The notes beneath the pieces were generated by a model that worked only from the letters and a program-made list of their open reading frames with translations, searched no databases and was not told where the DNA came from. A stretch of 64,000 nt of DNA from Eledone cirrhosa (lineage: Eukaryota): NCBI GenBank assembly GCA_964016885.1, contig OZ024746.1, positions 51,708,001-51,772,000 of the forward strand, in the 5' to 3' direction. Positions 34,221-63,583 of the stretch are shown here, one piece after another. Position numbers and translations under genes: made by a program. Positions within the stretch are counted from its first letter, which is position 1. Every line of letters starts with the position of its first letter.

Positions 34221-34412
34221 GTTTTAATATAGATGAGATTCTACAGGACTAGAACTGTTTCATTCTTTAGAAATCATCAGGAATCCTGATGATTTCTAAA
34301 GAAGGAAACAGTTCTAGTCCTGTATAATCTCATCTATATTAAAACATTTATACTCTGCTATGTATTGAGTACCTAACTTACTGTGGTTACCTCCGATTCA
34401 ACCCGGAATAAC
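34221..34412. mobile_element. Tiny palindromic element made of two head-to-head HHR cores plus a tail
   Basis: 125-bp palindrome at 34221-34345 with CTGATGA..GAAAcagttc on both strands. Relatives at 51820-51998, 52392-52583 and 61932-61990. Confidence 0.75.
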
Positions 34413-35303
34413 GTATATATATATATATATATATATATATATATATATATATATATATATATATGAGTTAATCAAGGTTCACATCTAAGAATGAGTTTTA
34501 CACACATACATATGTGTGCATATGTATTTGTATGTATGTGTCTGTGCATATGTATGTATATGTATGTGTATATATGTGTATATATGTATATATGTATATA
34601 TGTGTGTGTGTGTATGTATATGTGTATGTGTATAGGTATATGTATATGTGTGTGTGTGTATGTATTTATTTTTACGTATGTGTATGTGCAATTGTGTCTA
34701 TTGCTTACCACGTGTGTTTGTTCATTTATTTGTTGCCTGTATCGCTGACAACTTTATAATAATTTTTATATTCATTGTTATTCTTATGTGACGGTATTTT
34801 TATTATTATATTTTTCTTATAATTATTTGTGCGTGTTCGTATGTAGGTGTGTGTACATATATCTATATTTGTGCATGCGTATGCATGCGTGTATACATGT
34901 GTGTATGTATGTGTGTGTATGTACGTGTGTTTATATATGTATGATTGTTTGTATGTATGTATATATATATATATATATATATATATGCATGTGTGTGTGT
35001 GTGTGCGTGTTTGTGTATTTGTGTGTATGTGTATGTATGGATATGTTGATATATATGTGTGTATGTATGTATGTGCATATGTATGTGTATGTATATATAT
35101 ATATATATATATACATATATATGTGTGTGTGTGTATGTGTGCGTGTATATGTGTGTGTATGTATATATGTGTGTGTGTATGTAATTGTGTGTGTGTGTAC
35201 ATGTGTGTTTATTTTTCCTTTCCTTCTTCCTTTTCCAGCCTCACTTTCATATAGATTATATTTTTGTTTTAAAATCCAATGTCAATAAATACACCAGGAT
35301 TTG

Positions 35304-35346
35304 TTCATTCTGATGATTGAAAGCAAAATTTGTTTGCTTTTAAGAA
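35304..35346 (+). ncRNA. Hammerhead-like motif lacking helix II
   Basis: CTGATGA tt GAAA gcaaa-atttg-tttgc TT; helix I is weak. Confidence 0.5.
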
Positions 35347-35689
35347 ACCACTGGTAAATGAAATAATTGCCTAATGTTGTTTATTACATAACTATATATA
35401 TATATATATATATATACGAGCTGAAGGTAAAACAATTGTTCTCGGTATGGTGAACTAACTGTTGTGTTGCCACTTCTCTCCATCTCTCTCTCTCTATATA
35501 TATATATATATATATACACACATACACACAACAGACACGTACACACACACACACACATATATATATATATATATATATATATATATGTATGTAGACATAT
35601 ATATATATATATATATATACACACACACATTTATATATATACATATACACACGTATATATATGGGCCTTCCACTTTTATTTCACATTAT

Positions 35690-35851
35690 AGGGTAGGATA
35701 TGCTTTCCAGCATAGTTACGTCCCTTTACAATCTGAGTTCAATTCCCGCCGAGGTTTACTTTGCCTTTCATCCTTACGGGGTCGATAAAATAAAGTACCA
35801 GTAATGTACTGGGATAATTGCTGGCCTTGTGCCAAAAGTAGAAACAATTAT
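35690..35851 (+). mobile_element. Octopus-type tRNA-derived SINE
   Basis: gagttcaattcccgccgagg..ttgcctttcatccttacggggtcgataaaataaagtaccag; five copies in the window. Confidence 0.85.
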
Positions 35852-35914
35852 ATACATGTCTGCGTATATTTTAATTATTTAAAAATTACTTTTAACATGA
35901 TTTTTTTAAGTGAA

Positions 35915-35943
35915 CGTGACCCTATAGGGCACGGGTGGTCTAG
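35915..35943 (+). mobile_element. Helitron-like 3' terminus
   Basis: GC hairpin cgtgaccc-tata-gggcacg, a 6-nt spacer, then CTAG followed by T. Confidence 0.5.
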
Positions 35944-35973
35944 TATTACCTAAAAATATGTGGAATCTGTGTC

Positions 35974-59692: not shown

Positions 59693-60236
59693 ATATATAT
59701 ATATATATATATATATATATATATATATATATATATAGAGAGAGAGAGAGAGAGAGAGAGAGAGAGAGATATGTGTGTCTTTATTTGTCTATGTAATCGT
59801 TATGTCATATTTTTTCTATTGTTGATGTTGCAGTCATACAGCACCAGAACTAACACTGACAACTGTAAAACCTGATAACGTGGTCAAATGGAAAATGAAT
59901 CAGTTGGACAGAAACCAAAATGGAGTAAGTCATTCCTACATCACTACTATATTTCTACCATCTTTCTCATCCATCTTCTCCGATGACGACTGTCTTTTTT
60001 AGGGCTTCGTCCAGAGATCTCCAAATATTTTAGACCAACGATCCGTTTCATGGAATCTTTGCCCCTTTATTGACTCCAGGCATATACAAAAATATATGAA
60101 TTAGTTGACAGAATATAAAATATATAGACAATAAAACAGCCGTGGGTAAATCTTTCTCATCTTCTTCTCATCTTTCTTTTCCTATGACGACTGTCTTTTT
60201 TAGGACTTCATTCAGAGATCTCCAAACATTTTAGAC

Positions 60237-60792
60237 CAGAGGTAATCAAAGTAGTCGCCTCTTCCCCCTCCCTCGGGCGTTGTGAAGGTCCAGGGGTTGC
60301 TGAGGCCTAAGGGGGCGATGGGAGTGGGTAAAAATGATATAATAGTATATTAAATATCAAATGATACATATTATATATGTAAAATGATACATATTATATA
60401 TGTAAAATAGGGTGATAGCATAGTGGTCTGGATAACCAAAGTTGTGGGTTCAACTCCCACGTACATCAATACTCATCTTTTTTTCCATTTCCTAGGGGGT
60501 TCTAAACCCCACTATCAGGCTAAAATTTCTTTAGTCAAAAATACAGGGAAGCTTCTATTTCTAATTTCAAACTCGCTTGCTGTTTCAAAACATACTTACT
60601 TGTCAAAAAATATATAATATTTATTTATAGATGGTATATATTATATTATTTATTATATATAAATTAACTATATTATTTATATATTATTTACAATTTGCGT
60701 GTAGGCAGGTCTCTCTGGAAATAGGGTGGGGGCGCTAAGGGTATTATGTGGCCGTGAGGAGGACAGTAGCCGCAAAAGTTTGAGAACCTTTG
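60237..60792. mobile_element. hAT-type non-autonomous DNA transposon containing a SINE
   Basis: Imperfect TIRs cagaggtaatcaaagt / aagtttgagaacctttg, and 8-bp TSD TTTTAGAC. Confidence 0.7.
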
Positions 60793-60901
60793 TTTTAGAC
60801 CGGTGATCCCTTTCATGGAATGTTTGATCCCTCATTGACTCCAGACATGTTAAAAAATATATCAATTAGTTGACGGAATATAAAATATATAGACAATAAA
60901 G

Positions 60902-61069
60902 CAGTCGTGGGCAAACTGCGGCCCGGGAGCCGCATACGACCCGTTTGGCTTTCTGAATGGCACACCTAATTTCAAAATTGTCTTGAATCTTTTTAGTGGT
61001 GCGGCTTGCCATATGATGAACGAACCACATTCTATGCGGCCCACTGCTCGAAAATTTTGCCCATGCCTG
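60902..61069. mobile_element. hAT-type MITE
   Basis: TIRs cagtcgtgggcaaa / tttgcccatgcctg, and 8-bp TSD caataaag/caataagg. Confidence 0.75.
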
Positions 61070-62359
61070 CAATAAGGATTAATTATAATTCCGAAATCTG
61101 TATATACAAGTCGTATTAGATCGCTAGCATTTTATGTATTATCATTTCTTACTCACATATCAGGTTTTGTCTCGAAAGTTCAATCGTCCTACTGTGTAAC
61201 TCCACCGAGATTTGAGGTTCGATATCGACCACGTTAGGGGCCACAGACTTAGTCAAATGAGGATGATTACCGTCTTTGATGTATTGCATGCCTAGAAGGC
61301 TGATGGGAATGGATGAAAAAAATCCCAACTTATGAAATGCAGCACTGGAAAGCTGGGTAACAAAATGTCGAATTATCTGAAAGCCGAAAACCTTATCCAA
61401 ATGCTTGCTATAACAAGCATGTTAAGTCAATTTTATTCGCTAAGGAAGGGATTATTCTTGCGTGCAGTGTAACATGAAGTCCTTTGTGAGGTAAAGTGTG
61501 TAGCCGGATACTCTTTCTGGCACCGACCTTTTTAATTGCTTCTGACGGTATGCCTCCTTTCACTGTAAAAGCAGTGACACTTCAGCTAGGCAAATATCAG
61601 CAACGGAATGAAAACATAATTTCCTTGATCCGATTTATTGGCTTCTCTTTTTTTTCCTTCCCTTCAATCATGTTTATTATATATTAATTTATTAATTAAT
61701 TTTCACCTTCCTATCCCTCTCTTACCAACATTCTAAATGAAGTATTTGGAACGCAAAGAACTCAGAAAATTCAAAAAAGATTTACGCAAACGGAAGAAAA
61801 AATCTCGGAAATGTGGCCGTAATTTTCTGCGTTATTGTGATGAAGACCAGGACAAAATAATAACATTAGCTGAATTGATTGATTGTATGGGAGTAAACCG
61901 TGAGTAGCAAATATATATATATACCCACATGTGCTTTTCTGATAATTTCTTTTGACTGAAGCAGTTCTAGTCTTGAAGAAGCCATTTATATAAATATAGG
62001 TATTAGAGGTGCAAATTGTGTCCGTAGGCGGTATGCTAAGATGAGCACTCGATACTTGTGGGGAGCAGAGTATCAATAATGATATATAAGCGAATAAAGA
62101 ATCAATGTTGCATTATATACATATTTAATTACAAATTACATATGTTTCACTGCCGATCAGCTCGCTGGATGACCGGTTAATGTTCGATCCTGACTCTGAA
62201 ATCGGAAGCTCCTCGGATATGTGTTCACATGTAGACTGCTGATTGTCAGGGAAACATATGTAATATGTAATTAAATATGTATATGATGCAACACTGATTC
62301 TTTGTTCTTTTATATATACATATATATATATATGTGTGTGTGTGTATGTGTGTGTGTGT

Positions 62360-62520
62360 GGAAAGATTCAGGACCCCGACAGCTGAGCTCCGGCCGTTTC
62401 GACAGCTAGATCCGAACAGCTGTAGAAACGGCCACAGCTGAGCCGTCGGGGTCTTGAATCTTTTCATATTACCCACTCTACTACCCCAAGTATCGAGTAC
62501 CTAGTATTTTACCACACCCT
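62360..62520. mobile_element. Palindrome of two HHR 3' halves plus a tail
   Basis: GAAA cggc..gccGTC ggggtc appears on both strands. Tail actctact..gtatcgagtacct. Confidence 0.55.
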
Positions 62521-62569
62521 ATTTGATATATATATATATACATATATATATAAACGTATATATATATAT

Positions 62570-63583
62570 AGAATTCACAAGAATCAAAGCTATGTTCAAA
62601 GCATTTATACACTTACAATTGTTTCATCCAAACCTAGGCTTGGAATCTTCGGAGCATTTTTCAATGTTTGTACATATAATTGACTTCCTATCCAACGTAG
62701 GAGATATACAGATTCATATATATATATTGATGTACAGTGGAGTGACATATATTATACTATACTATATTTGTACAGCAATTCAAATTTAAAATCAAAATCA
62801 AAATTAAAATTAAAATTAAAATACATGCGGCAGATAACACAGATAATGTAATAATTGTTTCTACTTTAGGCACAGGGCCAGCAATTACCCAGTGCATTAC
62901 TGGTACTTTATTTTATCGACCCCGTAAGGATGAAAGGCAAAGTCAACCTCGGCGGGATTTGAACTCAGATCGTAAAGGGACGTAACTATGCTGGAAAGCA
63001 TGGCGTCCGACCCCTACCGATACTGCCAATCCACCGCTTGATAATGTAATAATGTGATCTGATTATGCCAATCCACCGCTGATAATGTAATAATGTGATT
63101 ATGCCAATCCACCGCTTGATAATGTAATAATGTGATCTGATTATCAAACTATCCTCTTACATTATCTGTGTTATCTGCCGCATGTATTTTAATTTAAATT
63201 TTAATTTTAATTTTGATTTTGATTTTGATTTTAAATTTGAATTGCTATACAAATATAGTATAGTATAATATATGTCACTCCACTGTACATCAATATATAT
63301 GTATCTGTATGTCTCCTACGTTGGATAGGAAGTCAATTATATGTACAAACATTGAAAAATGCTCCGAAGACTCCAAGCCTAGGTTTGGATGAAACAATTG
63401 TAAGTGAATAAATGCTTTGAACATAGCTTTGATTCTTGTGAATTCTATATAACTGCTCTGTAGAACAACTGATGTTATTACATTGAGCTATTTATCTTAC
63501 TGGTAATAAGGTAGTAATAAATTACTGACCTTCCCTGTTTATAGTTTAAAATATACATAACTATAAATAGTATCCTCAATATT
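62570..63583. mobile_element. Fold-back with outward-facing U4C HHRs and a SINE (62856-63039, -, 14-bp TSD) in the spacer
   Basis: Arms 62570-62848 and 63156-63446. TSD gataatgtaataat. Confidence 0.82.
63360..63405 (+). ncRNA. Hammerhead, CCGAAGA variant (mirror copy about 62610-62657, -)
   Basis: tgct CCGAAGA c-tccaagcc-ta-ggtttgga-t GAAA caattGTA agtg. Confidence 0.78.

Follow-up and report, generated by a model that had tools for sequence, protein, structure and literature searches.

How Penelope-like elements (PLEs) integrate, and why their ends lie head to head, is unsolved; among published proposals, one relies on copying from antisense RNA (PMC3846280). The question is raised here by ten short fold-back elements in a 64,000-nucleotide stretch of the Eledone cirrhosa genome (the window). 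The first-pass annotation had given all ten one architecture: inverted arms, a hammerhead in each arm, a one-sided tail, TA flanks and no ORF. Self-BLAST of the microsatellite-masked window recovered inverted arms at all ten sites, 79–96% alike; the TA flanks are as described, and a one-sided tail is present where it was mapped, on the left in the 29962 and 59052 elements. The layout is common to every site, but the sites belong to six sequence families rather than one (Table 1; families are named by member sites). We conclude that the fold-backs are stumps, that is, the shortest insertions, of endonuclease-bearing PLEs of six families, and not MITEs. The window is rich in TA arrays and also contains a 200-N gap; the insertions lie within (TA)n arrays, which mask any target-site duplication.

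Table 1. Fold-back elements, their parts and related PLEs in the window (putative assignments are worded as such).
Feature	Position	Strand	Remarks
Full-size head-to-head insertion, 10.4 kb, putative Hydra clade	8719..19090	-	786-aa ORF at 12569-14929; arms 97-100% alike
Fold-back of the pLTR of PLE 46202-48188	29961..30869	-	tail left (29961-30009)
Left hammerhead of 29962 fold-back, intact motif	30186-30152	-	right-arm core broken
Inner (tail-less) arm, fold-back of putative Hydra-clade PLE	34221..34282	-	parent +1 to ~+66 from putative start site
Type I hammerhead motif, intact, inner arm of 34221 unit	34280-34242	-	own descriptor
Junction, AAT loop in GAWTC quasi-palindrome	34282..34284	.	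commonest of many junction types
Tail-bearing arm of 34221 unit	34284..34345	+	hammerhead core at 34286, stem I damaged
One-sided tail of 34221 unit	34346..34413	+	parent +66 to +135
Second fold-back, 29962 family	39065..40020	+	different junction; tail right
5'-truncated PLE with 3' pLTR, parent of 29962 family	46202..48188	+	RT and C-terminal GIY-YIG, CX4CxxC linker
Third, tiny fold-back, 29962 family	48622..48770	+	without hammerhead
Retrozyme-like element	51145..51778	+	inverted copy 51145-51383, partial tandem 51385-51778, 26-nt tail
Older-subfamily fold-back, 34221 family	51815..51998	+	other junction, hammerheads damaged
Older-subfamily fold-back, 34221 family	52392..52583	+	other junction, hammerheads damaged
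Fold-back, long-stem-II hammerheads and unrelated spacer	53093..53752	+	motifs 53208-53146 minus, 53634-53696 plus
Fold-back, CCGA-core hammerheads	54903..55735	+	inner arm end = +81 from core
Fold-back, tail left, SINE in each arm	59018..59692	-	truncated hammerhead ~59355-59392, minus strand
Fold-back with GAAAC...GUC hammerhead half only	62360..62525	+	junctions cluster at 5' wall, like 34221 family
Relative of 54903 (77% alike)	62570..63583	+	SINE inserted mid-element

Rfam at gathering thresholds returned no hammerhead in the window, its sole match being tRNA-like (57992–58047), so hammerheads were sought with a descriptor of our own, the cut-offs of which miss damaged motifs, and by reading. 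At motif level, type I hammerheads occur in five of the six families; the 62360 family has half a core, lacking the CUGANGA strand. One hammerhead per arm holds as a motif, often decayed, for eight of the ten sites and fails for 59052 and 62360. Both arms carry it at 34221 (left intact, right with two stem-I mismatches), 51157 (U3/A8 core), 53093 (GAAA changed to GAAT on the left), and 54903 and 62570 (CCGA core, one change from canonical). At 29962 only the left motif is intact, that on the right having two core changes. The arms of 51820 and 52392 are homologous to those of 34221, with every hammerhead motif damaged; 59052, the true left end of which lies near 59018, keeps a single motif, truncated and mutated, in its left arm. 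Opposite-strand pairs of minimal hammerheads 100–700 bp apart have been reported in one sentence, with no mechanism, for Schistosoma PLE remnants (PMC4209133). These are alike in their two type I motifs on opposite strands, their position at truncated PLE ends and the U3/A8 core variant, whereas here the spacing goes down to less than 50 nt and two elements have a CCGA core. Core-to-core spacing is 12–75 nt in 32 short fold-backs (84 loci, genome order).

Parent ORFs were found for two of the six families, 34221 and 29962, and no parent was found for the other four. The short elements themselves carry no ORF, as annotated, but they are the ends of PLEs that do, which supports the earlier view of them as inverted-pLTR PLEs in miniature. 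The 29962 family corresponds to the 3' end of an RT/GIY-YIG element whose ORF (46202–47770) matches Pfam GIY-YIG at cut-off and RVT_1 below cut-off; this PLE is putatively Neptune-like, by motif only. In the 34221 family, the tail sequence runs on into the 5' UTR and ORF of the parent. At parent locus L177, and likewise L050, the pLTR precedes a single ORF that has both RT and GIY-YIG parts; L177 has CCAAT at -84, TATAAATA at -30 and an ATG at +181. The sequence upstream of the 34221-family start appears as loose ends in the raw reads of three other DNA libraries, in 717–805 reads each. The L177 protein (IRWRA, SDKTK, CNCLNKEAC) is 43% identical to that of window ORF 12569–14929 (VRWRA, SDKTG, CNCRNKANC), and no similarity was found between these two and the 46202 ORF. 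Pfam gave no name to four of five proteins, the Hydra-type ORFs included, and a homologue search returned 39 matches, all unnamed. Both proteins are putative members of the Hydra clade by their motifs, C-terminal GIY-YIG, (TA)n targets and comparison by eye with Hydra-1_Obim of Octopus bimaculoides, which the 34221 parent protein matches block by block. The published clade likewise has RW[KR], DKT, CxCX5C, a C-terminal GIY-YIG, a hammerhead and (TA)n targets (PMC8557442). The 34221 family is nevertheless distinct from Hydra-1_Obim: two of its motifs are absent from the supplement text of that paper, and it has a 3' UTR of up to several kb, whereas Hydra-1_Obim is listed there with 'no pLTR'.

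The 51157 family is an ORF-less 320-bp monomer with one U3/A8 type I hammerhead motif, found in up to about two tandem copies among 20 loci. With its short tandem monomer, type I hammerhead and lack of an ORF it would be a non-LTR retrozyme, like those in the available part of a recent preprint (bioRxiv 10.64898/2026.07.22.740005). Its insertions also bear the marks of a PLE, with an inverted copy, an inner end at a fixed position and a single tail, a combination that this part of the preprint does not describe.

Whether such units propagate themselves or form at each insertion can be read from their centres: as the first-pass annotation had set out beforehand, variable inversion points imply formation de novo, fixed points a self-propagating unit. 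One family group comprises 6,839 fold-backs, against 1 in a reversed-pattern control, and its junctions vary, which indicates de novo formation at each insertion. The junction type of the window occurs in only 3 of the 50 loci listed (hand count). The commonest junction has 459 exact matches, with polarity ATT in 48 and AAT in 52 of 100 listed (hand count). In the 54903 family the junctions are dispersed, with no wall. A palindromic unit copying itself, either MITE-like or as an RNA hairpin re-copied whole from a few master loci, would explain why the best 40 whole-unit matches are all full-length at 97–100%, why the 30 aligned have one junction, and why some odd junctions recur at unlinked loci (L128/L129; 3 of the 100 junctions listed). 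These best matches are selected for likeness, however, and unselected samples contain many junction types; because junctions cluster so tightly, a best-hit search mimics one fixed unit, and tail-only and exact-word searches identified the fixed unit as selection bias. Furthermore, both polarities of the commonest junction are found within every main subfamily, one-arm mutations within the arm are common to at most 2 of 58 copies, the unit, having its tail on one side only, lacks a terminal repeat at each end, the parental ORF is for an RT and not a transposase, and no arm among 335 distinct genomic arms is hyper-edited. Self-propagation is thus very unlikely. The last observation makes frequent re-copying of edited RNA less likely but says nothing against editing itself; an A-to-G excess was also absent in one-arm changes of 97 fold-backs (A>G 4/54). 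As for the fixed terminal inverted repeats and transposase that the annotation had named as contrary signs, we found one-sided tails, ragged ends, variable centres and a parent encoding RT and GIY-YIG. A MITE or other DNA transposon is refuted: there are no terminal inverted repeats at both ends, no fixed centre and no transposase-encoding parent.

In the 34221 family group, junctions are concentrated at a putative TATA/Inr start site, 6 nt ahead of the hammerhead. This position acts as a wall: of 60 arm ends, 25 fall between -2 and +1 and just 2 extend further upstream. An apparent second hot spot at -141 was an alignment break at an indel in the reference. In copies directly after (TA)n, the base preceding AGATT is G in 19, C in 15, T in 9 and A in 4 (47 loci, hand count), the parent having C; the excess of G is significant among the 32 non-C loci (p 4e-5). 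In fold-backs this base is G in 747 and A or T in 34. The extra non-templated G at hundreds of junctions suggests cap copying, of which it is a mark in L1 according to the accessible part of PMC11702581; it could also partly reflect a terminal-transferase preference for dC. In 63 of 100 listed junctions the other arm may have supplied the C, leaving only 37 of 100 (about 275 genome-wide) unconfounded. With the RT-encoding parent, this G supports the RNA-derived origin proposed in the annotation. Self-priming on an antisense RNA, as suggested for rotifer PLEs (PMC3846280), accounts for palindromes at head-to-head junctions and for intron retention. Yet the extra G lies at a sense start site behind a sense TATA box, on either arm; an antisense template would need to end exactly there, and with a 3' end that bears no cap. 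Our data point instead to a capped sense template, and we regard antisense priming as highly improbable here.

The two arms are distinguished by the tail. Exactly one tail is present in 87 of 92 fold-backs (30/32 and 57/60) and two in none; outside this count, C3:76501704, L212/L220 and L014 are two-tailed and L215 is joined tail to tail. In 57 of 60 copies the arms agree in subfamily variants, a fraction expected to be 0.43 if they were independent, a concordance that could also arise if two RNAs came from the same source locus or if gene conversion followed. Near-identical arm variants also suit single priming with snap-back, in which the cDNA reaches the cap, folds and copies itself into the second arm, tail asymmetry arising later by trimming or an inner-site nick. 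Most junctions can be drawn as hairpin loops of 3–6 nt, and cap bases on both arms back to back occur in none of the 100 junctions listed, both of which fit snap-back; the reaction is documented after full-length synthesis for an R2 protein (PMC11371274). Snap-back from the tail arm predicts, however, that the tail arm always extends further 5', whereas among unselected unequal arms the inner arm reaches further in 18 and the tail arm in 7 (L142/L145 and L144/L146 are segmental duplicates; L145 was left out of later arm-reach tests). In a cap-selected set, the G is on the tail arm in 37 and on the inner arm in 20 of 57, the latter again contrary to snap-back. A general rule that the inner arm is longer failed in this set, where G is oftener on the tail arm. 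In L268 the tail alone (+70 to +135) is inverted against an arm starting at +2343, an arrangement that needs two separate cDNAs, and multi-kb arms of very unequal length exist (L273/L274, L275/L276). Single priming with snap-back is therefore an unlikely source of the fold-backs.

Assembly errors or chimeric fold-back reads might be suspected, given the TA arrays and gap and because no read or contig among those listed bridges the centre by 31 nt on each side. The two flanks differ, however, and the arms end at fixed positions set by the element; arm divergence keeps step with family age, SINEs have later inserted within 59052 and 62570, and junctions carry a site-specific extra base at loci that outnumber the reversed-pattern control as given above. 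We consider an artefact scarcely credible.

The reading that we favour, and consider probable, is that reverse transcription starts from both ends of the cut (TA)n target, at two fixed internal positions on a sense RNA that is capped and uncleaved, and that the cDNAs are joined midway; each fold-back would be built anew at its own insertion. From the DNA we infer the transcription start and cap, and likewise the two priming events and the single RNA. The 34221-family RNA would likely start at the A of CCAGATT, 30 nt past the TATA box and 6 nt ahead of the hammerhead core. Of the two cDNAs, one probably begins near +135 and so includes the tail, and the other between +59 and +72. With only 60–135 nt of transcript to copy from these sites, the enzyme would reach the cap immediately and run past it, in many cases copying the cap as an extra base. 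The middle would be closed by 1–7 nt of microhomology or by end joining, either as the cDNAs anneal to each other or as one snaps back and then pairs with the other. Longer read-through RNAs would yield the same layout up to 10 kb.

Several published systems resemble this scheme. Insertions of endonuclease-bearing PLEs with an inverted pLTR and an optional 30–40 bp tail are already described (PMC8557442; PMC3846280, Pen2a_Av), and they too have a head-to-head inverted copy truncated at its 5' end, a tail on one side only, TATA and Inr-like motifs in the pLTR, and a short overlap at the junction; here, in contrast, there are thousands of stumps per family, the tail is 65–75 nt (34221 family) and the junctions are quantified. 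In the accessible part of an in vitro study of an anole PLE protein, Poseidon_Ac (PMC11167929), both strands are nicked and extended, two internal RT starts bound the tail, uncleaved RNA is used, hammerhead cleavage is dispensable and a dimer is predicted. Poseidon_Ac belongs to a different clade, and that part of the study deals with neither inverted products nor the 5' end of the RNA. L1 twin priming, in the available portion of PMC11702581, also has a second target end that primes internally, junction microhomology and an extra G at full-length 5' junctions. There the two cDNAs come from adjacent parts of the RNA. In the fold-backs the second site is fixed and the two cDNAs commonly share the full length of the arm; almost every copy shows overlapping arms, L268 and L133 alone coming close to the L1 pattern. 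Fold-back formation thus works like twin priming, yet not in its L1 form. A literature search of papers available without subscription found neither twin priming nor cap copying applied to PLE fold-backs.

More tentatively, PLE integration may be an obligatory two-primer reaction, in which a dimer primes from both target ends on two fixed sites of a single sense RNA, capped and uncleaved, with displacement of the inner cDNA by the outer; the mRNA leader would be a dead-end template, and the same machine would also insert retrozymes. If so, the element's own mRNA leader would produce thousands of perfect hairpins, full-length copies would arise only from read-through RNA, and PLE stumps would be a major source of the dsRNA edited in cephalopods. 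The potential for dsRNA and hyper-editing is exceptional in octopus, and heavy editing of Penelope is known from a lizard (PMC5625713).

Sharp predictions follow from the thousands of young junctions: sense transcripts should carry a cap at one named base, the template should be uncleaved RNA, each event should have one outer and one inner priming site, and both arms should have a single source. They are directly testable, since an active PLE protein works in vitro, as described in the accessible part of PMC11167929. Best-hit methods would mis-annotate such elements as MITEs, and the stumps add thousands of near-perfect palindromes to the genome. The predicted fold of the 34221 unit has an energy of -100.7 kcal/mol (z -17), a stability reached by none of 200 shuffles. 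If transcribed, such a hairpin may, as the annotation proposed, sequester the ribozyme and serve as an ADAR or siRNA substrate. Self-BLAST detected further short inverted repeats in the window at 38608–38906, 39069–39936, 48626–48711 and 62092–62307.

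The window is part of contig C6 in a 3.0-Gb animal genome and is dense in TA microsatellites and retroelement fragments. Inverted arms are present at 10/10 of the fold-back sites named in the first-pass annotation. These sites, designated by their start positions, fall into six families (34221/51820/52392; 29962; 51157; 53093; 54903/62570; 59052), with 62360 counted separately; judged by eye, 53093 is possibly a distant relative of 54903. A hammerhead had been proposed for every arm. This holds for eight elements, in which both arms carry the motif in varying states of decay, and fails for 59052, which has the motif in a single arm, and for 62360, which has half a core. 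An Rfam search of the window detected zero hammerheads. Both arms of 54903 and of 62570, and most printed copies of their family, have the core CCGA, not CUGA, so we regard CCGA as a family trait. In the 62360 family, RNA starting at the wall (the inferred start-site position where arm ends pile up) would contain neither the CUGANGA strand nor stem II. The two SINEs within the 59052 fold-back are ~90% alike, next to 60 bp of arm sequence without a single difference. A target duplication survives only around the right-hand SINE, and the two are likely independent insertions.

The genome was searched with the tail alone as query. Some of the copies found have a promoter-like region on their upstream side; another, L177, extends downstream into an ORF and represents the parent of the 34221 family. 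Signed positions are counted from the inferred start A of CCAGATT in this parent; TATA, Inr and hammerhead numbering follows the usual conventions. The L177 protein is similar, block by block in a by-eye comparison, to Hydra-1_Obim, and the features of the locus are those given for the Hydra clade of Penelope-like elements (PLEs) in section 11 of PMC8557442. The resemblance of the PLEs to Hydra-1_Obim, together with a SINE, suggests that the host is an octopus-like cephalopod. Among genome copies, the head-to-head layout ranges in size from 190 bp to several kb. TA arrays are often shared by different PLE families.

Features of the parent locus and of the window
Sequence	Position	Feature	Remarks
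L177	-84	CCAAT
L177	-30	TATAAATA
L177	0	inferred start A of the Inr-like CCAGATT	followed by hammerhead core at +6
L177	+135	tail end
L177	+181	ATG
L177	884-2406	29962-family fold-back	nested immediately upstream of the Hydra parent's pLTR
window	2100-5233; 24048-25025	LINE-type endonuclease and RT fragments	translations inspected
window	8719-19090	Hydra-clade head-to-head insertion, 10.4 kb	stop-free 786-aa frame; multi-kb, microsatellite-rich 3' UTR; hammerhead-like core near 18885 appears degenerate
window	31540-33220	decayed Hydra-type PLE	fragments closely like Hydra-1_Obim by eye
window	38608-38906; 62092-62307	two further inverted repeats, beyond the first-pass annotation	no hammerhead hit in either
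window	42574-43950	second retrozyme-like array, three tandem ~468-bp monomers, 99% alike	intact minimal hammerhead in each, minus strand (42856, 43321, 43790)
window	43975-43999	short inverted piece	beside the preceding array
window	46202-48188	another PLE	its 3' end is the 29962 family
window	51145-51778	ORF-less 320-bp hammerhead monomer, retrozyme-like	inserted with PLE signature (partial tandem and inverted copy)
window	54986; 55517; 62652; 63364	CCGA cores	both arms of 54903 and 62570
window	57992-58193; 60413-60603	one repeat in two copies, 83% identity	tRNA-like head; probably a SINE
window	59018-59692	59052 fold-back	SINE in each arm, at equivalent AT-rich site
window	62360-62525; 33777-33815	62360 family	long stem I and GAAAC...GUC
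window	6721; 22039; 26931; 28382; 29711; 35310; 36543; 54664	single hammerhead-like motifs	in PLE remnants

We asked whether the junction between the arms is constant or differs among copies. With the complete 192-bp unit of 34221 as query, 1,828 candidates were obtained; the best 40 were scored, all of them full-length, and the 30 aligned have a single common junction. We rejected a fixed, self-copying unit as the explanation, as the single junction in whole-unit matches reflects selection for likeness. The genome contains 12,753 exact matches to a 37-base word, and the first 100 of them, representing 84 loci, were all examined as an unselected sample. At 32 of these loci there is a short fold-back with a spacing of 12-75 nt, whose junction shows either an overlap of at most a few bases or a small insert. 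A looser pattern detects 6,839 fold-backs (1 for the control), and by hand count the window's junction type occurs at 3/50 of its listed loci. The commonest junction has an asymmetric centre base, whose polarity relative to the tail is 48:52 (100 listed of 459); both polarities are found on each main subfamily background. In the 54903 family, 12/24 loci have an inverted arm within 1.3 kb, most with an inner end near +81 from the hammerhead core, and the junction points are scattered; junctions of the 29962 family are varied as well. Junction points vary from copy to copy in the unselected loci, the looser pattern and both of these families.

The arm ends cluster at the inferred start site. Of 60 arm ends, 25 lie between -2 and +1, and no more than 2 are found upstream of this interval; one full-length copy begins at -6. 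Copies beginning directly after (TA)n were collected at 69 distinct loci, 47 of which include the A at position 0. The base preceding this A, which is C in the parent, is G in 19, C in 15, T in 9 and A in 4 (hand count). Where a fold-back arm ends at 0, the next base is complementary to G 747 times, against 34 times for A or T. At 63/100 listed junctions the extra base could derive from the other arm; the remaining 37 scale to ~275 genome-wide, a number that still greatly exceeds the control. The wall of the 34221 family is also seen in the 62360 family, with G before the start in 3/13 contexts; longer copies have T there. For L1, PMC11702581 interprets an extra G as cap copying. The template would be a capped sense RNA beginning at 0/+1. 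It was uncleaved, because the arms extend through the hammerhead cleavage position (+44/+45), in agreement with the uncleaved RNA template of the PLE system described in vitro in PMC11167929. Among arms that stop at +1, a non-templated T (sense) frequently replaces the first A (e.g. L115, L131, L175, L032); as a speculation, the enzyme might stumble on a methylated cap-adjacent A.

Exactly one tail is present in 30/32 and 57/60 fold-backs, and two tails in none of either set; 29/31 one-tailed against a coin flip gives p = 2e-7. The five exceptions were scored tail-less; a tail carrying a deletion is present in one or more of these. Inner arms terminate at +59, +66 or +72 and outer, tail-bearing arms at +135 to +137. 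The extra G is found on either arm (tail arm 37, inner arm 20), and subfamily variants, rare ones included, are common to both arms in 57/60. At locus L268, only the stretch between the inner and outer end sites is inverted and the opposite arm starts at +2343; therefore, two cDNAs are needed. In vitro, a PLE protein has two RT start sites and extends both strands, according to PMC11167929. Together, these observations support two-ended priming. Two-tailed and tail-to-tail copies exist as exceptions.

Among the 100 junctions listed, none has two back-to-back cap bases, and small hairpins can be drawn for the majority, so the middle may be closed by one cDNA that snaps back before pairing with the second cDNA. 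For R2, snap-back is documented in PMC11371274. Direct support for the inversion was sought in sequencing reads and none was obtained. The first-pass annotation had also proposed a dsRNA hairpin that could sequester the ribozyme and serve as an ADAR or siRNA substrate. The 34221 unit is predicted to form a near-perfect 61-bp hairpin, which would exclude the hammerhead fold; no A-to-G excess is found in genomic fold-back arms.

The kind of insertion is known: PMC8557442 and PMC3846280 describe the inverted-pLTR layout, and PMC4209133 notes opposite-strand hammerhead pairs. This set is new and very abundant, and the start-site wall, extra G, one-tail count and polarity split were not found in the literature searched. 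The junction evidence bears on the open mechanism of PLE insertion. In the retrozyme-like 51157 family (L242-L261), 8/20 loci have the inner end exactly at monomer position 320 or close to it, and 19/20 have the outer end at 346-347. The PLE-type insertion signature of the 320-bp monomer lends structural support to the idea that retrozymes may be mobilised by PLE proteins.
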